Of a stretch of DNA of 64,000 nt, positions 1 through 55,008 are shown piece after piece (position 1 is the first letter of the stretch; each line of letters begins with the position of its first letter). The DNA is from Rhodospirillales bacterium (GTDB taxonomy: Bacteria > Pseudomonadota > Alphaproteobacteria > JAJFIK01), in contig JAJFIK010000075.1 in the NCBI GenBank assembly GCA_021775005.1, positions 11,086 through 75,085 of the forward strand, written 5' to 3'. The translations under genes and the position numbers were made by a program. The notes beneath the pieces are model-generated. The model had not been told where the DNA came from and did no database searches. It saw only the letters and a list, made by a program, of their open reading frames with translations.

Positions 1-188
1 GCGGTGCATGAGCGCGATTTGCCCCGCTGGCCCGCCGAAACTAAGCAATCCAATTTTTGCCCACGTCGCTGTCGCTTCGCGATAGCTCGGCGACGCATTC
101 AGCTCTGACGCCGGAACTGCTGATTCTCCTATGTCTACGCTATCGCCCATCTGACCACCCGCCCGATTCTTCGCCCCATCTCAAGTCG

Positions 189-9161: not shown

Positions 9162-10073
9162 GTGGTTGTCGCTACCGTTGCCATTGGTGCCTGGTTCTTT
9201 CTGGGGCAACTGAACGGCGCTGGCGTGACGTCTGCGGCGGCTTGCGGCGATACGCCAGCAAACACGTTTGTCTTTGTGCCCGGCGGCGGCTTCCAGATGG
9301 GGTCCAATGACTACTATCCGGACGAAGCCCCGATCCGCGATGTGGTGATGGAGGGGTTTTGGATTCGCCGCACCGAAATCACCAATGCTGAGTTCCGCGC
9401 CTTTGTTGCCGCGACCGGCTACGTCACTGTTGCCGAGCGCGCGCCCCCCGAAGGGGTTGCGCCAGGATCGGCAGTCTTCGTTCCGGCCCAGCGCGGCGAG
9501 CCCATTCGGCCGATGAGTTGGTGGCATTGGGTGCCCGGTGCCGATTGGCGCCATCCCGAGGGGCCGGGCAGTTCAATCGACGGCAGGGACGGCTATCCCG
9601 TCACGCAAATTGCCTATGAAGATGCGCTCGCCTTTGCGGAATGGGCCGGTGAGACCCTGCCCAATGAAGCGCAATGGGAATATGCCGCCAGTGCGGGCGG
9701 CACGGTGTCCGACAGTCCCTATCGCATAGAAGACGGCGCGCCCCACCCCATCGCCAACACATGGCAAGGTTTGTTCCCGGTCCTCAACACCGGCGAGGAT
9801 GGGTTTTTGGGCACCTCTCCCGCTGGATGTTTTGAGGCCAATGCTTTTGAGCTGCATGACATGATCGGCAATGTGTGGGAGTGGACGGCAACGCCTGCGA
9901 CCGGCACTGCGCGCGGCGTCATCAAAGGCGGATCGTATCTCTGCGCACCAAATTACTGCATGCGCTATCGCCCTGCCGCCCGCGAAGCGCAAGAAACCGG
10001 CCTTGGCACGAACCACATCGGCTTCCGCACCATCCGCACTGCGCCGCCGCCGCAACCTGCACAGAGTCAATAA
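9162..10073 (+). CDS. formylglycine-generating enzyme (FGE/SUMF1 family)
   Basis: FGE-sulfatase domain motifs: RTEITNAEFRAFV, YPVTQIAYEDALAFAEWAG, HDMIGNVWEWT and GGSYLC. It lies 20 nt downstream of the sulfatase. Confidence 0.85.
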   Translation: MVVATVAIGAWFFLGQLNGAGVTSAAACGDTPANTFVFVPGGGFQMGSNDYYPDEAPIRDVVMEGFWIRRTEITNAEFRAFVAATGYVTVAERAPPEGVAPGSAVFVPAQRGEPIRPMSWWHWVPGADWRHPEGPGSSIDGRDGYPVTQIAYEDALAFAEWAGETLPNEAQWEYAASAGGTVSDSPYRIEDGAPHPIANTWQGLFPVLNTGEDGFLGTSPAGCFEANAFELHDMIGNVWEWTATPATGTARGVIKGGSYLCAPNYCMRYRPAAREAQETGLGTNHIGFRTIRTAPPPQPAQSQ

Positions 10074-10208
10074 TGACCAGTTCCGATCGCCTTGAGTTTC
10101 TGGGGGCGATACCAAGGCTGCCTATTTGAGGTAAATAAGATGATCGATCAGGATCGTGCGGCCGCCATTTAGTCGTATCACCGTGACTCGCAACTGTGAA
10201 AGATCGCC

Positions 10209-10763
10209 ATGCGTCATGCGCTTGTTCATCATCCCAGGACCCCTTGCCCCAGCGTTGGGGCGCTTGAGGTAGCGGTCGCCCGGGGGCCTGGGTGTGACCT
10301 CAAGCTGGGGTTTTTTCTCAGCGGACAGATCTCAAATCTCCGCCTTCCGCCCGCCGGGGCGATTGCGCGGGAGGATGGACTGTGGCAGCACACTTGTTTT
10401 GAAGTCTTCGTCTGCAACCCCACAACAGGGGCTTATGTTGAGTTCAACTTTGCGCCGTCGCGGCAATGGGCTGGCTATCACTTTAGTGGGTATCGGCAAG
10501 ACATGCGCCCTCTGAGCGAAATCCCCGCGCCGCAGCTGGAGATCAAGACAGGCGACAAAGGGCTCCAGCTTCACGCCGCGCTGTCACTTGAAGGTTTGGC
10601 GGAATTCGAGCAACCAACCCCGTGGCACCTCGGTCTTTCGGCTGTGATCGAAGACACTCAGGGGCGCGTGTCATATTGGGCGCTCACCCACCCGCCAGGC
10701 CGTGCGGATTTTCATTGTGCCGATTGCTTTGCTCTCGAACTTGGCGCAGAAATGAAATCATGA
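10209..10763 (+). CDS. hypothetical protein, possibly CBM9/DOMON-like
   Basis: 184 aa. The pattern CFEVFV...YVEFNFAPS resembles the family-9 carbohydrate-binding-like fold. This is a weak call from memory only. Confidence 0.4.
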   Translation: MRHALVHHPRTPCPSVGALEVAVARGPGCDLKLGFFLSGQISNLRLPPAGAIAREDGLWQHTCFEVFVCNPTTGAYVEFNFAPSRQWAGYHFSGYRQDMRPLSEIPAPQLEIKTGDKGLQLHAALSLEGLAEFEQPTPWHLGLSAVIEDTQGRVSYWALTHPPGRADFHCADCFALELGAEMKS

Positions 10764-11962
10764 AATTTGGTATCGATAGACTTCTCCATGAGCCGGGATT
10801 GCGCGGGCCCCTCATTGGCAAGCGCTTGGCGCTGCTTGCCCATCCGGCCTCTGTCACTGAGGACCTGACCCATTCGCTTGATGCCCTGGCCGCTTGTGAT
10901 GACTTAAAGCTCAGCGCTGCGTTTGGGCCCCAGCATGGCTTGCGCGGCGACAAGCAAGACAACATGGTCGAATCGCCTGACTTCAACGATTTGGCGCACA
11001 ACATCCCTGTCTTCAGTCTTTACGGCGAGGTGCGGCGACCAACAGATGAAATGATGGAGGGTTTTGACGTTCTTCTTGTCGACCTGCAGGATTTGGGCTG
11101 CCGCATATACACATTTGTCACCACACTTCTTTATGTGCTCGAAGCTGCGGCGCGGCACAACAAAGCGGTCTGGGTTCTTGATCGTCCCAATCCCGTTGGT
11201 CGCCCCATCGAGGGCCTGACGCTTGAAGCGGGATGGGAGAGTTTTGTTGGTGCGGGACCCATGCCCATGCGCCACGGCCTTACGCTTGGGGAAATGGGCG
11301 CGTGGTTCATCAAGACATTTGGGCTCGACGTGGACTATCGCGTGATCGAGATGGAAGGGTGGCAGCCGGAAACCGGGCCGGGCTTTGGCTGGCCGCTGGG
11401 CCAGCGCCCGTGGATTAACCCAAGCCCCAATGCCCCGAATCTCTCAATGGCGCGCGCTTATGGGGGAACGGTGATGCTGGAAGGCACGGAGCTTTCTGAG
11501 GGTCGCGGCACAACGCGGCCGCTTGAGCTTTTCGGCGCCCCCGACATTGATGCCCGCCGCGTGATTGCGAAAATGCGCAAGCTGGCCCCGAACTGGCTTG
11601 CGGGCGCAACCTTGCGAGACTGTTGGTTCGAACCAACATTCCATAAACATGCAGGCCAGCTTTGCAACGGTGTCCAGATTCATGTGGAAGGTCCCAGCTA
11701 TGACCATACCGCATTTAAGCCCTGGCGCCTTCAAGCGCTGGCCTTCAAGGCCATTCGGTCGCTCTACCCGGACTACCCCCTGTGGCGCGACTTTGCCTAT
11801 GAATACGAGCACGGCAAGCCCGCCATCGACGTGATCAACGGGGGCCCGCGCTTGCGCACATGGGTCGACGATGGTGCTGCTACGCCAAGTGATCTTGATG
11901 AACTGGCGGGCGCGGACGAAGCGGCTTGGAAAAGCGAGCGCCAAGAGTTTTTGATGTACTGA
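10760..11962 (+). CDS. DUF1343 family protein (NamZ-like putative exo-glycosidase)
   Basis: N-terminal MKFGIDRLL...GKRLALLAHPASV, with length and composition typical of DUF1343. ATGA overlap with the upstream ORF. Confidence 0.6.
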   Translation: MKFGIDRLLHEPGLRGPLIGKRLALLAHPASVTEDLTHSLDALAACDDLKLSAAFGPQHGLRGDKQDNMVESPDFNDLAHNIPVFSLYGEVRRPTDEMMEGFDVLLVDLQDLGCRIYTFVTTLLYVLEAAARHNKAVWVLDRPNPVGRPIEGLTLEAGWESFVGAGPMPMRHGLTLGEMGAWFIKTFGLDVDYRVIEMEGWQPETGPGFGWPLGQRPWINPSPNAPNLSMARAYGGTVMLEGTELSEGRGTTRPLELFGAPDIDARRVIAKMRKLAPNWLAGATLRDCWFEPTFHKHAGQLCNGVQIHVEGPSYDHTAFKPWRLQALAFKAIRSLYPDYPLWRDFAYEYEHGKPAIDVINGGPRLRTWVDDGAATPSDLDELAGADEAAWKSERQEFLMY

Positions 11963-12129
11963 TCACCAGCGAAGCACCGCGGAACCTCATACCACTTGCC
12001 ATCACTCAATGATTGGCTTGATGCTCAAGCGGTTCGATAAAAAAGGGTACACCGCAGCTCTCGCGGCACCTTACTCATCGGTTGGTGGAACTGTAACGCC
12101 CCTAACAAGCGATGAACAGTTACTCTGAG

Positions 12130-12687
12130 TTACTGGGCCATGCTTGCAGCGACGGCCGCCAAGCCAGACTCATAAACTCCCGTTAGGGCATCGATGACAT
12201 CTTGCTCGTGGCCTTCATTTGCATTGTAGACACTGGTCCAGGTGACTGTGGACACTCCTGATCCATCATCATCAACGCTTAACGTGCTGGTGTAATCGGT
12301 GAACGGCAGCGGGCTGGACAGGATTGTGTAAGTATAAGTGTACGCCCCATCGTCTCTGGCGGTCTGCAGTTCAACAAACGTTGCTTGACCATCTGCGGTC
12401 ACAAGCGTCCGGGTCGGCGGCGTATTCCCGTCTTCTTCACAGGTGCCGATGGCGGGGTGCCAATCTTGCACCGAGCAGAACGAGCCAATCATTGCCCACA
12501 CGGCAGATGGCGCGGCCTCAACATCGACGGTACGCGTAAAGGATTCTGACGGCCCGGGTGCGGCGCACGCGCTTAGCACAACAAAGATGCCGACGGACGC
12601 TGCTACCTTCAACGAGCCAAAACCTAATGACTGCTTCCGCGAGGATGTTTCAACTTTTCCTGACAGGATTTTTTGATTCATATTCAT
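12130..12687 (-). CDS. SRPBCC (Bet v1/polyketide cyclase-like) family lipoprotein
   Basis: Signal peptide with lipobox VVLSAC. The C-terminal 140 aa are paralogous to the neighbouring SRPBCC protein. Confidence 0.55.
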   Translation of the reverse strand: MNMNQKILSGKVETSSRKQSLGFGSLKVAASVGIFVVLSACAAPGPSESFTRTVDVEAAPSAVWAMIGSFCSVQDWHPAIGTCEEDGNTPPTRTLVTADGQATFVELQTARDDGAYTYTYTILSSPLPFTDYTSTLSVDDDGSGVSTVTWTSVYNANEGHEQDVIDALTGVYESGLAAVAASMAQ

Positions 12688-12852
12688 GCTGTGATCCCCA
12701 TGATTGTTGGGCTCCCTGATAATTTAAAGGGGCCGGTGAGTAAACATAACACATTGACAGTACCTGCAAGCAAGGCGAGTGCTCCTGAGAAAGCAACTGG
12801 TGTATTTTTTAGCATCGGGTAACCTCTTGCTCAGGATTGTACTTAGGACGGA

Positions 12853-13287
12853 CTAGTTGAATTTTTTGGCCAACAGGCCCAACAGACCCGCGTAAAGCGG
12901 GTCGCAAAAGCCTTTGACATCGCCCTTCGCACGCTCCCAATCTGATGACCACTCGACGAAACATTGTCCGGTGGCGGTAATTGGCGCGACGCGCGCTTTG
13001 CCGATATATCCCCACACCTGATCTGCAGATAGAACATCGGGTCCATCATCGATCGAATAGCTAAATGCCATTGAATCATCGTCAAAACTTTGAAGCGTTT
13101 CGGTGATGGCACCATTGACCAGACGCACGGCACCGACTTCTGTGCCGTTCTTTCCGTTCAAATTTTCAACGCTTTCTATGACGCCCTCGGCCCAGAACAT
13201 GTCATTGAAATTGCGCAACGCCGACCAAACCTGATCGGCTGATGCATTCACAATGATCGAGTTGTACGTTCCCATTTTCAACCTCAT
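12853..13287 (-). CDS. SRPBCC family protein (polyketide cyclase/dehydrase-like)
   Basis: 144 aa beginning MGTYNSIIVNASADQVWSALRNF, typical of the SRPBCC ligand-binding fold. Confidence 0.6.
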   Translation of the reverse strand: MRLKMGTYNSIIVNASADQVWSALRNFNDMFWAEGVIESVENLNGKNGTEVGAVRLVNGAITETLQSFDDDSMAFSYSIDDGPDVLSADQVWGYIGKARVAPITATGQCFVEWSSDWERAKGDVKGFCDPLYAGLLGLLAKKFN

Positions 13288-47213: not shown

Positions 47214-48610
47214 CAGTTCGCCAAATTCAATCGGGCCTGCGATGCGCCCAGAGATGACGGGTGATTGGGCCAGTAGATGCGATCCATCGCCCTTTCGCTG
47301 GCCCAGGGGCGCGCGGGTGCCCCCAAGGCTTCGGCCACAGCAAGACCCGACTGAAGGCCATCTTCGTGAAATCCGTATCCCCAATAGGCGCCGCAGAACC
47401 ATGTGTTTTGCACGCCTTGCAAGGTCCAAAGCTTACGCTGAGCTTTCATGGCGGCGGCGTCAAAGACGGGGTGGGTGTAAGTGAAGCTATTGAACACGTG
47501 CTCTGGGGCGGGCGGTGTTGAGGGGTTCAAGGTGACCAGGAGCGGCGTTTTGGTGGGTATCGATTGGAGCCGATTCATCCAATAGGTCAGACTGATGCTG
47601 CTCTCCTCCGTATCACCCTCACCGCTTAGATAATTCCAGCTCGACCATGCGTTACGGCGCTGGGGCATGAAATCTGTATCGCGGTGCAAGTAAACCATAT
47701 TCTCCTGATACCCTATAGCGCCGAGAAGGTTTTTCTCATCGCACGTGGGGCGATCCAAAAGAGCCAAAGCTTCATCGCTGTGACAGGCGAAGATGACGTG
47801 ATCAAATTCCTGTGGTGGTCGGGCCTCAAAGTGAATGATGTGTTTGTCGCCTGTCCGCTCGACAGTGACGATACGGGCATTAAGAACGGTATCACACCTC
47901 GTATCTTTAATCAGTCTACTGACATATTCGCGGCTGCCGCCAAATACTGTGCGCCATTCAGGCCGCCCACCGAAACGCATCAGGCCATGGTTTTCGAAAA
48001 ACTTGAGGAAGGACCGCGCCGGAAACTGCCGCATGGTCTCCACCGGCGATGACCAAATCGCCGCACACATGGGTAGAATATGATCGTGCCGAAATGTCCG
48101 GGAGAAACCTTTGTCATCGAGATAGTTTTCAAGGGACTTGTGCTCATCATCACCCGATAGCGCCGCCAAATCTTGTGGCCCATCGCGGTAAAGCCGCAGA
48201 AGGTCGGCAATCATGCGCCACATGCGGTGGCGAACCACATTTCGTCGCTGGGCAAAAAGGCCGCTTAAGCCCGATCCGGAATATTCAAAACTGCCGTCGC
48301 CCAAGGACGCTGCAAAACTCATGTCACTGGGGATTGTGGGGACGCCAAGGGTTTTGAAAAGCCCCGTCAAGTTGGGATAGTTCGTCTCGTTATAGACAAT
48401 GAACCCCGTATCAACAGGGAATACACCGTTCTCGCATTCCACTTCCGTGGTGTGAGAGTGGCCTCCAAGCCGGTCATTACGCTCAAACAGCGTCACATCA
48501 TAAAGAGTGCCCAAACGCCAGGCCGCCGCAAGGCCGGAGATGCCGGAGCCCACAATAGCCAGGCGCGGTCGGCGGCCTTGTGACGTGGGGAATGAGATGA
48601 CTTCGGCCAT
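47213..48610 (-). CDS. NAD(P)/FAD-dependent oxidoreductase (amine oxidase-like)
   Basis: Dinucleotide-binding motif LAIVGSGISGLAAAWRL...ERNDRLGGHSHT. AGAGGA lies 8 nt before the ATG at 48610. Confidence 0.75.
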   Translation of the reverse strand: MAEVISFPTSQGRRPRLAIVGSGISGLAAAWRLGTLYDVTLFERNDRLGGHSHTTEVECENGVFPVDTGFIVYNETNYPNLTGLFKTLGVPTIPSDMSFAASLGDGSFEYSGSGLSGLFAQRRNVVRHRMWRMIADLLRLYRDGPQDLAALSGDDEHKSLENYLDDKGFSRTFRHDHILPMCAAIWSSPVETMRQFPARSFLKFFENHGLMRFGGRPEWRTVFGGSREYVSRLIKDTRCDTVLNARIVTVERTGDKHIIHFEARPPQEFDHVIFACHSDEALALLDRPTCDEKNLLGAIGYQENMVYLHRDTDFMPQRRNAWSSWNYLSGEGDTEESSISLTYWMNRLQSIPTKTPLLVTLNPSTPPAPEHVFNSFTYTHPVFDAAAMKAQRKLWTLQGVQNTWFCGAYWGYGFHEDGLQSGLAVAEALGAPARPWASERAMDRIYWPNHPSSLGASQARLNLAN

Positions 48611-48645
48611 GTGCGGCATCCTCTTTGGGGTAACTGATGCCTCTT

Positions 48646-48672
48646 CTACGGATGCGAGCCGTCATCGGATCA
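48646..48672 (-). promoter_or_regulatory. candidate sigma-E-type promoter TGATCC-N16-CGTAG for the FAD-oxidase/DUF1365 operon
   Basis: On the - strand, TGATCCGATGACGGCTCGCATCCGTAG, about 30 nt upstream of the oxidase start. Confidence 0.5.
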
Positions 48673-48684
48673 AAAGAAAAAAGG

Positions 48685-48711
48685 TGATCCAATTGGCAAC
48701 GCCTTTCGTAT
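48685..48711 (+). promoter_or_regulatory. candidate autoregulatory sigma-E promoter TGATCC-N16-CGTAT upstream of rpoE
   Basis: TGATCCAATTGGCAACGCCTTTCGTAT. I recall this as matching the TGATCC -35 / CGTA-containing -10 of Rhodobacter RpoE promoters. Confidence 0.5.
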
Positions 48712-48788
48712 GGGTTTGTATGTACGCGCAAGACCTACATTTCACGCCGAGCCCATTTGGCGTTGCCCCCCAAGGGAAGGGAGCCTCT

Positions 48789-49373
48789 GTGCCGCCTGAA
48801 GACTCTGATGCGCAGGATCAGGACGTTGCGAGCGAGCAACGGTCTTGCGTGCAAAGGATCGCCGTTGCACGGGATCAGGCCGCATTCACGACACTTTTTG
48901 ATTATTTTGGGCCGCGGGTGAAAAGCTTTTTGATGTCGCGGAGGCTGAACCCCCAGACGGCTGACGATCTGGCCCAGGAAGTGATGCTCACCATCTGGCG
49001 CAAGGCCCATCAGTATCAACCGGACAAGGCAAGTGTATCTACCTGGGTCTATACAATCGCCCGGAACCGTATGATCGATGACCGGCGCGTGGAAGCCAAG
49101 CGCGCACGGCTCGACACGAGCGATCCCAGTCAGGAACAGCCCGCACCCCCAACACCCGAAGAAGTTCTTCAGCGGTCTTCTGACGCATTGATCGTCACAT
49201 TAGCCCTTCAAAGCCTGCCGCAATCGCAGGAAGAAATTATGCGCCTGTCGTTTATGGATGGGCAAAGCCACCATGAGATTGCCGAACGATTGGGATTGCC
49301 TTTGGGGACCGTAAAATCTCGAATTCGTCTCGCCCGACAACGACTTTCTGATTATTTTGGAGCTCGCTCATGA
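48789..49373 (+). CDS. rpoE: ECF RNA polymerase sigma factor (RpoE-like, group IV sigma-70)
   Basis: Sigma-70 region 2 (AQEVMLTIWRKAHQYQ) and region 4 (EEIMRLSFMDGQSHHEIAERLGLPLGTVKSRI). GTG 48789 was chosen because GGGAAGGGAG lies 6 nt upstream. The ORF extends to 48507. Confidence 0.75.
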   Translation: MPPEDSDAQDQDVASEQRSCVQRIAVARDQAAFTTLFDYFGPRVKSFLMSRRLNPQTADDLAQEVMLTIWRKAHQYQPDKASVSTWVYTIARNRMIDDRRVEAKRARLDTSDPSQEQPAPPTPEEVLQRSSDALIVTLALQSLPQSQEEIMRLSFMDGQSHHEIAERLGLPLGTVKSRIRLARQRLSDYFGARS

Positions 49374-50023
49374 CCCACCAAACCGCCCACACAGCGCTTG
49401 GCGAAGAATGGTTCGTGGACTATGCCGCGGGAAACCTGTCGCCAGCCTATGCCGCAGTTGCCGAGTGCTTTCTTGATCTCAATGAGGATTGCCGAGAAAC
49501 CGTCGATGAGCTTGAACGCGTTGGCGGTGCACTGCTTGATACGGCGGATGCGGGTGCGGGTCTTTCTGTTGTCGCGGCTGACTTGCTTGCGCGAGAAGAC
49601 GATGCACCGGAATCCCAAGGGCAGGAAAGCCAATGCCCTGATTACATCCCAAACTCTTTGCGCGAGAAATTTGATCTGGACCGCAATGGCGTCAAATGGA
49701 CATTCCTGGGGCCAGGCCTGCAAAAGGCGCTTTTGTGGAAGGGCAGCAATGATGATCGTCTTTGGCTTTTAAAAGCAGAACCCGGCGTTGCCATTCCCAA
49801 TCACACCCATCGCGGCGCGGAGCTTACCCTCGTGCTGAAAGGTGAATTCAGGGATGGCGAGGATGTCTATGGCGTGGGTGACGTGGAAGAGGCCGACCAT
49901 GACCTGACCCACACCATCAAAATCTCGTCGGAAGAGAGTTGCATTTGCCTTGCCGCCACCAAAGGGCGCCTGATATTTCCAGCGCCTCTTATCAAGCTGA
50001 TGCAAGTATTCCTGGACATCTGA
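49370..50023 (+). CDS. chrR: ChrR-family anti-sigma-E factor (N-terminal zinc-binding ASD, C-terminal cupin)
   Basis: ATGA overlap with rpoE. The C-terminal cupin reads LWLLKAEPGVAIPNHTHRGAELTLVLKGEFRDGEDVY. Confidence 0.75.
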   Translation: MTHQTAHTALGEEWFVDYAAGNLSPAYAAVAECFLDLNEDCRETVDELERVGGALLDTADAGAGLSVVAADLLAREDDAPESQGQESQCPDYIPNSLREKFDLDRNGVKWTFLGPGLQKALLWKGSNDDRLWLLKAEPGVAIPNHTHRGAELTLVLKGEFRDGEDVYGVGDVEEADHDLTHTIKISSEESCICLAATKGRLIFPAPLIKLMQVFLDI

Positions 50024-52067: not shown

Positions 52068-52514
52068 TTACTTTAGTCTGACAGTACCATCTGCAAAACT
52101 AATCCCAGCCGCTGGAAATGTTCTTCTGATGCCTGCATCACGATTACACAAGAATCTAGTTATTGGTAGGGACACCGAGCCGGACGTCTTGTCGATTAGC
52201 CGATTGGTCAACTTGAGCAGGGTTGTCTTGCCGCATCTGGGGGGGGTGAGATGAACGATTGTCCCTCCATCCTCGACATTGGGCGTGATATTTCGAACGG
52301 CCCATGTCTCAGCCCCACTCGGATCAATCGCATTCATCGGATCATTACCCACATAGGCATACATGTTCATCTGATCCTCGTAGCCGATGGGGTCCGTCTG
52401 ATAGAAGCGCCCCAGGGGGCCGGAGTACATCCGCGCGCGGTAGTAATAAAGATTGGTTTCTGCGTCATAGCGCCGCCCGGTAAAGCGTAAAGAATCGCCC
52501 CCCGCATCATCCAC
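52068..52514 (-). pseudogene. orphan RHS-repeat-associated core fragment with a variable C-terminal tip
   Basis: [53 protein letters not shown] is the RHS core signature. Only 14 aa precede it and about 80 aa of lower-GC tip follow. No upstream RHS body. Confidence 0.6.
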
Positions 52515-52657: not shown

Positions 52658-52675
52658 GTGGCGGAGAGACAGGGA
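52658..52675. repeat. 18-bp exact direct repeat of the tRNA-Ser 3' end (TGGCGGAGAGACAGGGAT)
   Basis: Identical to 52815..52832, which is the 3' acceptor/T-arm of tRNA-Ser. This att-like duplication lies 139 bp away. Confidence 0.6.
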
Positions 52676-52782
52676 TGTGCTCGGCTTGATAAGCCAAGCC
52701 TGCACTGCCGTTGCTAATCTCGCTGGCGCTCGAAAAGCGTCCGGTCGAACGGCGTTCAAATCCGCCCGGCCCTGCCTCATAA

Positions 52783-52814: not shown

Positions 52815-52904
52815 TGGCGGAGAGACAGGGATTCGAACCCTGGGAACGCTCGCGCGCTCAACGGTTTTCGAGACCGCCCCGTTCGACCACTCCGGCATCT
52901 CTCC
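52815..52904 (-). tRNA. tRNA-Ser(CGA): tRNA-Ser (anticodon CGA), class II with a long variable arm, encoded CCA
   Basis: Hand-folded. Acceptor GGAGAGA/TCTCTCC, D-arm CCG-GAGTGGTCGAA-CGG, anticodon stem GCGGT/ACCGT with loop CTCGAAA, long variable arm, T-arm CAGGG-TTCGAAT-CCCTG, discriminator G plus CCA. Confidence 0.85.
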
Positions 52905-53009: not shown

Positions 53010-53942
53010 CTACGAGGCGGGAGAGGCTTGCAGCCAAAGCCGTTCAGCCTCTGAATCAATGATGAAATATTGATCCGACAACAGATCACTCCCAAGAATG
53101 ATTGTTGGTGTAGTTTCCTGCCTCAGCATTTGGAATATTGAAACATCGGAGGCGGTCAACGCTTCTTCGGACCATTCCTTCGCACCCAGTGTGATCAGCC
53201 CCACCGGCAAGCTCCACGCCGCAATGGGGTCATCGGTGGCACCGCGAATAGGCTCATCTTCTGCAAGTCCTGCTGTGGTGAGATCTTCCACACCAAGGGC
53301 AGCAGCCCCGGCAGGATTAATGGTGCTGCGCCGCGCGCCGGTATCGATGACCGCATCAAAAGCCACGCCATCAATCTCAACCTGGGCCCACAAGAACAGG
53401 CCATGACGCCGCTCTGTCGAAATACCGATCCAACTGCCACCATAAGCGCTGGCAGGATCAAAGCTGCCGGCATTGCCCACAGCGGCGGCATAGATATCCA
53501 AGCGGTCTTCGCTTGCAGCAAAGCCAACTGGTTGCGCGAAAAGAACGCCAACGCCCAAAACACCGGCGATATCAGAAAAATGTTCCACATCTGGAAGTGC
53601 AATCACCGTATCAATGTCGAAGGTCCAAGTGCTGGCTTCAAGGGTACCCAAGCTCACTTGACGTGCTTCGGTAACGCCGCTGGCCCCCTGGACCATGATG
53701 CGCTCCGCACTTTCCACTTCGCTAAGGCCTGCCTCAACGGCAAAGCTGTCGAACACCATTGTGCTACCTGACGCAGAGTCAACAATGAAAGTGTAAGGCC
53801 CCTCGCCATTGACCATGAAGTCAACAAGAAAATGTCCGTCCTCGGACAATCGCGCGGGCACAGGAATGGGCGATGCCGAGACCGGTGTGCCCAGTGTCGG
53901 CAGTGCCAGAATGAAAATAAAAATTGCTAGTAGTCGTTGCAT
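53010..53942 (-). CDS. secreted pseudo-dimeric retropepsin-like (clan AA) aspartic protease
   Basis: Signal peptide. The second lobe carries VIDTGARRST (D-T-G-A). The first lobe has IVDSASGST in the homologous position. The start was chosen at MQRLLAIF; the ORF extends to 53996. Confidence 0.55.
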   Translation of the reverse strand: MQRLLAIFIFILALPTLGTPVSASPIPVPARLSEDGHFLVDFMVNGEGPYTFIVDSASGSTMVFDSFAVEAGLSEVESAERIMVQGASGVTEARQVSLGTLEASTWTFDIDTVIALPDVEHFSDIAGVLGVGVLFAQPVGFAASEDRLDIYAAAVGNAGSFDPASAYGGSWIGISTERRHGLFLWAQVEIDGVAFDAVIDTGARRSTINPAGAAALGVEDLTTAGLAEDEPIRGATDDPIAAWSLPVGLITLGAKEWSEEALTASDVSIFQMLRQETTPTIILGSDLLSDQYFIIDSEAERLWLQASPAS

Positions 53943-54021
53943 GATGGGCCTCCCTTGGTTGCTCACCATGGAGCGCCCTGAGCGGCGCAGGTTCAACTTA
54001 ACTCTGTGTCATGAACAAGAT

Positions 54022-55008
54022 TTAATCTGCGGCTGCGCTTTGTGAAGTCGTTCCTTGCTCAGCAAAGAAGTTCCCTAAAACCGAAGGGTGCCGCGCTTGC
54101 ACCCAAAGCTGCCGGCCAATGGGATCAATGACAAAATTCTGCTCCGCCAAAAAATCGGCGCCCAGGATCATGACCGGTTGATCATCTGCTTCAAACGACG
54201 CAAAAATGGGCAAATCCGCCAGCGAGATTGTGCGTGCCGCCCAGACCCGCTCGCCCAACTGCAAGGTTGAAACCGGCACAATCCAGGCTGCAACCATGTC
54301 AGGGGAAGCACTTTGAATGGGCGCGTCTTCAGTAAGCGCCACATAGGCCGGATCAATGCCCGCCGCAACAGCAGCAGCAGAGTTGATCGTTGAACGCTGC
54401 GCGCCGGTATCGATTAGGGCCGGAATTGTTACGCCATTGATGGCAACATCAATCCAGTAAAACCCTTGGCCTTCGGCAAAACCTTCACGCTCGGACATTT
54501 CAACAGCAAACCAACTTCCCTCTAGATCGGTTTCGGGATCAATCGCCTCACCGGTGCGATAAAGATGCAAACGCCCTTCGGACAAAGCAAATCCCACCGG
54601 CTGGCGGTAAAGAACGTCCGCGCCCAAAATGCCGTAGCTTGTTTCTTCAAGCGCCAGCCCGGGGCTAAAACTCAAGATATATGGCAGATCAATTTGCTCT
54701 GCGCCGATGCGAACACTGCCCAGCTCAACCACTTCGGCCGCAATGGACCCGCTGGAGGCTTGCAGCGTAATGGTACCTTCGCTCACGACCCGCTCCAGCG
54801 CCATACGGTCTGAAAGATTGTCGAATATAATTGTGCCGCTGGCGGCGCTGTCCACAATAAAGGGATAAGGCCCCTCGTCATTGACCCAGGTGTCGATAAT
54901 GAGGTGATGGTCGCTGGTGAGCCGTACCGGCACGTCAAAGGGGTCCGCGGCCAGCGCCGGAAGGCAGCCAGCTATCCCCATTGCAAGTGCGAGCAAAACG
55001 CGCGTCAT
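54022..55008 (-). CDS. secreted pseudo-dimeric retropepsin-like aspartic protease (tandem paralog)
   Basis: Paralog of the upstream gene with the same length. LIDTGAQRST in lobe 2, IVDSAASGT in lobe 1. Signal peptide MTRVLLALAMGIAGCLPALAA. Confidence 0.55.
   Translation of the reverse strand: MTRVLLALAMGIAGCLPALAADPFDVPVRLTSDHHLIIDTWVNDEGPYPFIVDSAASGTIIFDNLSDRMALERVVSEGTITLQASSGSIAAEVVELGSVRIGAEQIDLPYILSFSPGLALEETSYGILGADVLYRQPVGFALSEGRLHLYRTGEAIDPETDLEGSWFAVEMSEREGFAEGQGFYWIDVAINGVTIPALIDTGAQRSTINSAAAVAAGIDPAYVALTEDAPIQSASPDMVAAWIVPVSTLQLGERVWAARTISLADLPIFASFEADDQPVMILGADFLAEQNFVIDPIGRQLWVQARHPSVLGNFFAEQGTTSQSAAAD

Follow-up and report, generated by a model that had tools for sequence, protein, structure and literature searches.

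The window analysed here, a 64,000-nt stretch of a Rhodospirillales contig, contains two adjacent genes, termed A and B, located beside a serine tRNA gene:

52659..52676, minus strand: exact 18-nt repeat of the tRNA-Ser 3′ end, an att-like scar (2 matches, 0 expected)
52815..52904, minus strand: tRNA-Ser(cga) found by ARAGORN, a conserved neighbour outside the protease unit that flanks the protease genes in the loci L001, L003 and L004
53010..53942, minus strand: gene A, predicted exported two-lobe retropepsin-like aspartic protease, 310 aa
54022..55008, minus strand: gene B, predicted exported two-lobe retropepsin-like aspartic protease, 328 aa

Gene B begins at an ATG with GGGGGAG before it. 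The longest open reading frame for gene A (53010..53996) has a TTG start. Since the ATG at 53942 is preceded by a GGGAGG Shine-Dalgarno sequence and its position agrees with the N-termini of homologues, a 310-aa product was assigned to gene A, and the TTG at 53996 is probably not used. The same 310-aa product is also present in a public sequence collection. Over 300 residues, A and B share 39% identity (E 4e-67), and they are thus tandem paralogues of 310 and 328 aa, as originally proposed. A scan of the minus strand of the rplU-B spacer for sigma-70 promoters found no site, and neither A, B nor their relatives carried a source-given name in a public cluster look-up.

Domain content was determined with the two clan AA profiles that the preliminary description had put forward as a check, Asp_protease_2 (PF13650) and gag-asp_proteas (PF13975), both of which matched. 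Two PF13650 stretches were found in each protein (E 1.5e-18 and 8.9e-22), with scores of 67.7 bits for A and 78.1 bits for B against a gathering cut-off of 24.3 bits, and the PF13650/PF13975 domain was also matched in 12 of 12 close relatives. The single-domain subfamily TIGR02281 (clan_AA_DTGA) was rejected as a classification, the scores of 46.4 bits for A and 53.0 bits for B falling below its cut-off of 57.95. The active-site and psi-loop motifs of the two lobes are located as follows:

54841..54852, minus strand: B lobe-1 active-site loop D53-S-A-A, with Ala in the place of Gly (translation; D53 invariant in alignments A1 and A2)
54616..54633, minus strand: B lobe-1 psi-loop motif GILGAD, of the hydrophobic-hydrophobic-Gly type (translation; G126 and G129 invariant)
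54400..54411, minus strand: B lobe-2 active-site loop D200-T-G-A, canonical retropepsin type (translation; D200 and G202 invariant)
54154..54171, minus strand: B lobe-2 psi-loop motif MILGAD (translation; G283 and D285 invariant)
53769..53780, minus strand: A lobe-1 active-site loop D55-S-A-S (translation; D55 invariant in alignment A3)
53547..53564, minus strand: A lobe-1 psi-loop motif GVLGVG, with Gly in place of Asp after h-h-G-x (translation)
53334..53345, minus strand: A lobe-2 active-site loop D200-T-G-A (translation, alignment)
53085..53102, minus strand: A lobe-2 psi-loop motif IILGSD (translation)

Translation thus agrees with the earlier reading of a canonical D-T-G-A in lobe 2 and a non-canonical D-S-A-(S/A) in lobe 1: the D-T/S-G-A pattern is found in lobe 2 of both proteins, and lobe 1 keeps the aspartate with Gly changed to Ala. 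The lobe-2 DTGA loop of B aligns with the DSGA loop of Ddi1. The psi-loop h-h-Gly motif is present in each lobe of A and B, and its glycines are invariant among relatives.

Comparison of lobe 1 with lobe 2 by plain BLASTP was insignificant (E 0.07), and profile-profile comparison was needed to reveal their homology. With hhalign the two lobes aligned over 123 columns at 17% identity (probability 99.1%, E 1e-18), pairing D53 with D200 and GILGAD with MILGAD. The AF2 models of the two proteins were confident (pLDDT 84.7 and 90.0, pTM 0.81 and 0.86) and have the retropepsin/pepsin β-barrel fold, with the lobes placed as in an active dimer. Their fold matches included a bacterial two-lobe structure, pepsins and tethered HIV protease. 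Superposition on the tethered HIV protease, together with the homology alignment, suggests that the aspartates of the two lobes face each other. The proposal of a single-chain two-lobe clan AA protease is therefore borne out by domain matches, lobe-lobe homology, models and fold matches alike, and structure prediction, which might have shown neither a pepsin nor a retropepsin fold, gave no grounds for refuting it.

A distant two-lobe relative with a crystal structure is PDB 9IY9 (released 2025), a Bacteroides fragilis 'exported protein / putative endopeptidase'. It belongs to a different phylum (Bacteroidota), is 420 aa in length, about 100 aa longer than A and B, and shares 12-14% identity with them, with sequence significance reached in the C-lobe only. 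In the literature searched, which covered 9IY9, PF13650, bilobed bacterial retropepsins and aspartic proteases of B. fragilis, no paper describes 9IY9 or deals with the architecture of A and B. HIV-1 PR, Ddi1, SASPase/ASPRV1 and Rickettsia APRc are one-lobe chains that form obligate symmetric dimers, whereas A and B are predicted to be covalent pseudo-dimers of unlike lobes; APRc is further set apart by being membrane-embedded, and the viral enzymes by being cut from polyproteins. Pseudomonas RloA and RimB (PDB 9G59, 2PMA), retropepsin-like peptidases that are secreted or cytosolic, resemble A and B in being bacterial clan AA proteins with a DTGA motif, and RloA has a signal peptide (PMC12239564). 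Assignment to this type, in which single-lobe chains akin to PA0462 and Lpg0085 form a homodimer, was nevertheless rejected, as RloA and RimB have one lobe and gave low Z scores. Pepsin family A1 was likewise rejected, with no PF00026 match at E≤1. Identity to family A1 members, including shewasins and the C-terminal domain of the M. tuberculosis PE_PGRS protein Rv0977, is 11-19%. Besides being smaller than pepsins, A and B have no evident propeptide and carry Ala after DTG where pepsins have Ser/Thr; moreover, their lobes are homologous by sequence, whereas those of pepsin share motifs alone (PMC2761423).

The unusual lobe-1 loop was investigated across the family. Both aspartates are kept in every relative aligned at those positions, in each lobe, among 175 sequences. 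Lobe 1 has D-S/T-A in 48 of the 175 family loops and lobe 2 never does; on a rough tree this Gly-to-Ala change arose about 13 times, in lobe 1 only. From these alignments, D-S-A in lobe 1 is a recurrent family trait with retention of the aspartate. A precedent is found in P. falciparum HAP, whose loops are FHTASS and LDSATS and which is catalytically active (PMC11313796). HAP shares a D-S-A loop with A and B, and its structures 3fns and 3fnu were among the structural matches; it differs in belonging to pepsin family A1, in having Ala in both lobes and in the replacement of the N-lobe Asp by His, whereas A and B have both Asp residues and Ala in lobe 1 only. In pepsin and HIV protease alike, substrate or inhibitor binds to the backbone carbonyl of the DTG Gly (PMC11313796), and a lobe-1 Gly-to-Ala change, touching the residue that provides this carbonyl, could lower activity. 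A and B might even be pseudo-proteases, exported binding or inhibitor proteins in which the scaffold is kept and the D-S-A lobe cripples catalysis, for which plant xylanase inhibitors, basic 7S globulin and Bla g 2 provide analogues in the pepsin fold. The lobe-1 psi-loop of A, LGVG without Asp or Asn, also counts against a protease. However, in those pepsin-fold proteins known to be inactive, a catalytic aspartate has been lost (PMC11313796), and the aligned relatives of A and B keep both; HAP is active despite its D-S-A; and the roughly 13 events confined to lobe 1 look like a tolerated asymmetric variant under constraint rather than decay. Loss of catalysis is accordingly considered improbable.

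The N-terminal signal sequences and the C-terminal tail of B were located as follows:

54949..55008, minus strand: putative B signal peptide MTRVLLALAMGIAGCLPALA, with cleavage predicted at ALA|AD (hydrophobicity and translation)
53874..53942, minus strand: putative A signal peptide MQRLLAIFIFILALPTLGTPVSA, with cleavage predicted at VSA|SP (hydrophobicity and translation, AXA rule)
54025..54093, minus strand: 23-aa C-terminal tail of B, RHPSVLGNFFAEQGTTSQSAAAD, outside the fold (pLDDT and alignment)

In keeping with the signal peptides noted in the preliminary description, both proteins have a hydrophobic, signal-like N-terminus with an AXA site and no second hydrophobic span, suggesting that A and B are Sec-exported and would be periplasmic or extracellular. 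The mature proteins of the A/B clade are nearly lysine-free and very acidic. The paralogues may differ by location rather than chemistry, with B a lipoprotein anchored in the outer or inner membrane and A soluble in the periplasm. Consistent with such anchoring, the B signal peptide contains a lipobox-like IAGC, FAAC occupies the equivalent place in the relatives P0002 and P0003, and the C-terminal tail, of which residues 309-328 have pLDDT below 50 in the AF2 model, is kept only in B-type relatives, being missing from A and P0021. The lipobox-like Cys, however, is not kept in P0004 and the more distant relatives of alignment A2, and an AXA site lies five residues after it. A lipoprotein B is therefore rather unlikely, and cleavage by signal peptidase I is favoured for B, given that the Cys is not conserved.

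The preliminary description also noted a tRNA integration scar beside the genes and took it to suggest an accessory origin. The scar itself is real, since the tRNA 3′ end recurs as an exact 18-nt repeat where none is expected by chance, and a scrambled, degraded Rhs-core/ABC-ATPase remnant lies nearby. A and B might thus have been acquired horizontally as cargo of an element integrated at tRNA-Ser, and the small size of their close clade (about eight close relatives among 5.8 billion sequences) is in keeping with this. The geometry and conservation of the locus nevertheless argue strongly against it. The repeat and the Rhs remnant lie 3′ of tRNA-Ser and the proteases lie 5′ of it, so A and B are not between the tRNA 3′ end and the repeat, and genomic-island cargo was rejected on this basis along with conserved synteny and uniform base composition. 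Two other lineages keep the order rplU, protease(s), tRNA-Ser(cga): L001 with a protease pair (69% identity for B, 55% for A), and L003/L004 with a single copy (45% identity). The proteases have diverged more than the L21, L27 and Obg encoded beside them (71-92%), but the divergence is ordered in the same way. In L001 an island with an integrase and ParB sits 3′ of the tRNA, on the far side from the proteases, and the G+C content of A and B (0.54-0.59) is the same as that of the flanks, without a step. An origin as accessory cargo is thus largely refuted and is regarded as highly improbable; A and B are old chromosomal residents with a vertical history, not recent imports.

Family size was assessed by an exhaustive profile search covering 1.84 billion representatives clustered at 50% identity, which returned 1303 clusters at E≤1e-30; among the best 150 of these 1303 matches, almost every one is about 300 aa in length and matched end to end. 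A scan of genome contigs with a single protein as query gave no match. A scan with the closer alignment A2 as query succeeded and placed the relatives mainly in Alphaproteobacteria, with many Sphingomonas, Caulobacterales, Hyphomonadaceae and Rhodospirillaceae genomes represented. The earlier remark that such proteins are uncommon in bacteria does not hold up against these 1303 clusters, the many alphaproteobacterial genomes and the crystallised distant relative 9IY9; A and B are further members of a large, known, biochemically uncharacterised family. Neighbouring genes across 80 loci yielded no functional partner, in a clustering that is noisy because high-GC genomes give many spurious ORFs. 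Neighbours vary by clade, with rplU and tRNA-Ser here and a helicase-like and a Kup-like ORF in Sphingomonas loci, and such recurring recognisable neighbours represent lineage synteny.

Taken together, these data make it likely that A and B are Sec-exported single-chain clan AA aspartic endopeptidases with two homologous lobes and an asymmetric active site. Internal duplication and fusion of a retropepsin-like domain would have placed two lobes in one chain, and tandem duplication of a gene long resident between rplU and tRNA-Ser in this lineage of Alphaproteobacteria would have given the A/B pair. The lobes would pack in the manner of pepsin lobes or of the two chains in a retroviral protease dimer, in which case D53 of B, or D55 of A, would meet D200 at the cleft; the paired aspartates would activate a water molecule and the substrate peptide bond would be cut, in an active site made asymmetric by a canonical D-T-G-A in lobe 2 and D-S-A-A/S in lobe 1. 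Endopeptidase activity is predicted here, and no biochemical data on any family member were found in the literature searched. Ala after DTG is a retropepsin/renin signature tied to neutral-pH activity (PMC2761423; PMC12239564), and A and B may prefer neutral pH. Their most likely role would be to process or degrade proteins or peptides that are extracellular or belong to the envelope.

To our knowledge, bacterial clan AA aspartic proteases are barely characterised, with APRc, RimB/RloA, shewasins and a few others as the examples. The exported two-lobe architecture is abundant in Alphaproteobacteria and metagenomes, with no biochemical study in the literature searched. A fitting annotation for A and B would be exported two-lobe retropepsin-like aspartic endopeptidases, tandem paralogues belonging to the chromosomal backbone and not island cargo. 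More tentatively, the family could represent a separate, comparatively recent retropepsin-like duplication-fusion with a functionally asymmetric active site, and the very acidic, nearly lysine-free composition of the A/B clade could reflect a specificity towards basic substrates as well as protection from autolysis; we regard this as possible rather than probable. If true, the family would be a living analogue of the hypothesised step from a homodimeric ancestor to pepsin, and the tolerance of D-S/T-Ala in lobe 1, never in lobe 2, would mean that the two aspartate loops differ in role. The family offers a natural system for the passage from symmetric homodimer to asymmetric monomer, the classic question of pepsin origin, and would reveal whether one lobe alone can do without the 'invariant' Gly of D-T-G.

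The minus strand carries two consecutive, co-oriented paralogous protease genes, A and B:

53010..53996, minus strand: gene A ORF in its longest form, from TTG
54022..55008, minus strand: gene B, 328 aa, with an ATG preceded by GGGGGAG

Since an ATG at 53942 in A has GGGAGG ahead of it at the right distance, and the resulting N-terminus (MQRLL...) agrees with homologues and with a 310-aa product in the public collection, the lengths of 310 and 328 aa given in the preliminary description are right. Taking this ATG leaves 79 nt between A and B. Scanning that spacer for the sigma-70 consensus gave nothing resembling a promoter, so co-transcription is plausible. The products share 39% identity across 300 residues (E 4e-67).

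The earlier reading of two retropepsin-like lobes per chain was borne out by HMM searches with clan AA families: PF13650 (Asp_protease_2) and PF13975 each gave two matching stretches in both proteins (whole-protein Pfam E-values 1.5e-18 for A and 8.9e-22 for B), and the same double match was present in 12 of 12 close relatives. Translation gave the motifs as first read, D-S-A-(S/A) in the N-terminal lobe 1 (DSAA in B, DSAS in A) and DTGA in the C-terminal lobe 2 of both. The second clan-AA signature, hydrophobic-hydrophobic-Gly, translates as GILGAD and MILGAD in B and GVLGVG and IILGSD in A; alignments of relatives show no variation at either aspartate or at the key glycines. A and B belong to the clan-AA retropepsin-like superfamily (PF13650) and would work as its other members do. 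They do not belong to pepsin family A1 or the RloA/RimB family, and fall outside TIGR02281 (clan_AA_DTGA, NCBIfam) because their match is below its cut-off. One psi-loop motif departs from the usual form:

53547..53564, minus strand: psi-loop motif of A lobe 1, LGVG instead of LG-x-D

This LGVG is similar to the LGLG/LGLA of the pepsin N-lobe (PMC11313796).

Lobe 1 and lobe 2 were not significantly similar by plain BLASTP. A profile-profile comparison of 174 lobe-1 and 166 lobe-2 segments gave a probability of 99.1% (E 1e-18, 123 aligned columns), with D53 of B aligned to D200 and both hydrophobic-hydrophobic-Gly motifs in register; each chain is therefore a single retropepsin-like domain that has been duplicated and fused. 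Lobe homology is thus still detectable in A and B, whereas the lobes of pepsin have only short motifs in common (PMC2761423). Two related proteins, P0023 (544 aa) and P0026 (579 aa), have four retropepsin-like lobes and four D-T/S-G-A motifs each; these are two pseudo-dimers fused, the gene-fusion counterpart of the tandem A-B pair.

AlphaFold2 models of B (pLDDT 84.7, pTM 0.81) and A (pLDDT 90.0, pTM 0.86) are confident, with low scores confined to the signal peptides, the linker between the lobes and the C-terminal tail of B. The predicted structures match both pepsin and retropepsin folds, and Foldseek gave the same picture as the other fold comparison; the refuting outcome named in the preliminary description, a prediction lacking either fold, did not occur.

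Fold matches of the A and B models, with scores
9IY9, 'putative endopeptidase / exported protein', Bacteroides fragilis (~250 residues aligned): 22.0 / 22.8
Fungal and apicomplexan pepsins: 15-18
Rv0977, bacterial pepsin-like domain: 16.6-16.9
3ka2, tethered HIV-1 protease dimer (179-181/192 residues aligned): 14.1-14.8
One-lobe enzymes APRc, Ddi1, EIAV, HIV: 7-12

The nearest solved relative is 9IY9. Since both lobes superpose simultaneously on a catalytically competent dimer, and D53 (B) or D55 (A) and D200 are homologues of the catalytic aspartates, the two aspartates should face each other.

Of 175 aligned relatives, ~125 carry D-T/S-G in lobe 1 and 48 carry D-T/S-A there; lobe 2 has Ala in none of the 175, and Asp is kept in both lobes wherever the position aligned. 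A rough neighbour-joining tree implies ~13 changes of the Gly/Ala state. Because Ala is uniform in the 14-member clade of A, B and their orthologues, the change from Gly is older than the A/B duplication. A backbone carbonyl can be provided by alanine as by glycine. That of the D-T-G glycine in pepsin and HIV protease contributes to ligand binding (PMC11313796). A D-S-A precedent exists in the active Plasmodium falciparum histo-aspartic protease (HAP), whose D-loops are FHTASS and LDSATS (PMC11313796, table 1). Given its recurrence in the family, the retained Asp, the HAP precedent and the carbonyl still available, D-S-A is read by analogy as a tolerated, asymmetric variant and is not taken to indicate lost activity, although it may alter rate or specificity.

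At each N-terminus a short basic head precedes a hydrophobic core and an AXA site (ALA|AD in B, VSA|SP in A), and hydrophobicity analysis found no further hydrophobic span in either protein. B also carries a lipobox-like IAGC; since this Cys is kept only in the closest orthologues, cleavage by signal peptidase I is favoured, with a lipoprotein form as the less likely alternative. Cys is absent from mature A, and the sole Cys of B lies within its signal peptide, so both lack disulfides. The mature proteins are very acidic (pI ~4.05) and nearly Lys-free (1 and 0 Lys in A and B); their close clade has 0-2 Lys throughout, the family a median of 6 (pI 4.5-10), and other exported proteins of the window 3-5. 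B ends in an additional segment:

54025..54093, minus strand: B C-terminal tail, predicted disordered, consensus RRSAALGxxxxPTxExSAAxx

The tail is shared by long-form close relatives (P0002-P0008, P0019, P0020), is absent from A and the related P0021, and might be a pro-segment, self-substrate or sorting tag.

After Sec export and signal-peptide removal, each chain would fold to a pseudo-dimer with the D53/D55 and D200 dyad in its cleft and act by general acid-base hydrolysis, as all clan-AA enzymes do. Putative flaps are the hairpins at residues ~80-95 of lobe 1 (conserved Q83, G87) and ~224-245 of lobe 2 (conserved P230, A241, W242). Ala after DTG, a feature of retropepsins and renin associated with near-neutral activity (PMC12239564, PMC2761423), suggests that A and B may be active near neutral pH. 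Neighbour comparison across loci found no conserved partner gene hinting at a substrate.

The surroundings of the pair are as follows:

Local order: ECF sigma factor, ChrR-like anti-sigma factor, unknown ORF, lipocalin, MipA, Rhs remnant, tRNA-Ser(cga), A, B
Beyond B, divergent: rplU, rpmA, GNAT, TPR protein, obg
52659..52676 and 52815..52832, minus strand: exact 18-nt direct repeat (ATCCCTGTCTCTCCGCCA) of the tRNA-Ser(cga) 3' end
52068..52514, minus strand: chimeric remnant ORF, 148 aa

The tRNA integration scar of the preliminary description is real, and the repeat looks like the att-type scar of an integrated element since lost or degraded. The accessory or island origin proposed alongside it is not supported. 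The copy at 52659..52676 lies 139 nt past the tRNA 3' end, on the side away from A and B, and the G+C of A and B (0.54-0.59) equals that of the flanks. The same pair occurs between rplU and tRNA-Ser(cga) in a related locus, L001 (GCA_025450675.1; B 69%, A 55% identical), and a single homologue, 43-45% identical to A and B alike, occupies this slot in two Alphaproteobacteria MAGs, L003 and L004 (L21 71%, Obg 76% identical). From this conserved slot and the uniform G+C, the protease gene is an old resident; the tandem duplication is older than the split between the window and L001 lineages. Elsewhere tandem pairs are sporadic, as in Sphingomonas loci L015 and L018. Directly 3' of the same tRNA-Ser, L001 carries an island (10011..12987) of serine recombinase (resolvase), DUF2924, DUF5681 and ParB-methylase; the lineage therefore has an active hotspot for integration at this tRNA-Ser. 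The remnant ORF combines an Rhs-associated core domain (residues 7-67; TIGR03696, E 2.5e-22) with similarity to an ABC-transporter ATPase Walker-A region (residues ~69-117; E 6e-7) and, since no Rhs body lies upstream, probably represents a toxin tip, orphaned or decayed, beside the scar. At 48507..50023 (plus strand), 3 kb from the proteases, the ECF sigma factor gene adjoins that of the ChrR-type (Cupin_7) anti-sigma factor.

Such secreted two-lobe proteases had been described as uncommon in bacteria, a view that the search counts and taxonomic spread do not support. A word-indexed search gave only 18 relatives, 8 of them close; an exhaustive profile search of 1.84 billion cluster representatives gave 46,976 matches at E<=1e-3, 17,173 at 1e-10 and 1303 at 1e-30, the best 150 being nearly all 280-360 aa and aligned over their full length as a single stretch. 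Scanning the GTDB species genomes placed relatives in Sphingomonas (the cultured S. faeni, S. phyllosphaerae, S. endophytica and S. echinoides among them) and in Parasphingopyxis, Caulobacterales, Hyphomonadaceae, Parvularculaceae, Rhodospirillaceae and a few other phyla. The searched literature contained no paper on the two-lobe architecture and none citing 9IY9. These two-lobe proteins are common yet uncharacterised, and A and B are new members of a known, database-annotated, biochemically unexplored kind. More speculatively, the family may have repeated the pepsin-type fusion independently, in a form still traceable by sequence and with a dyad that is functionally asymmetric.
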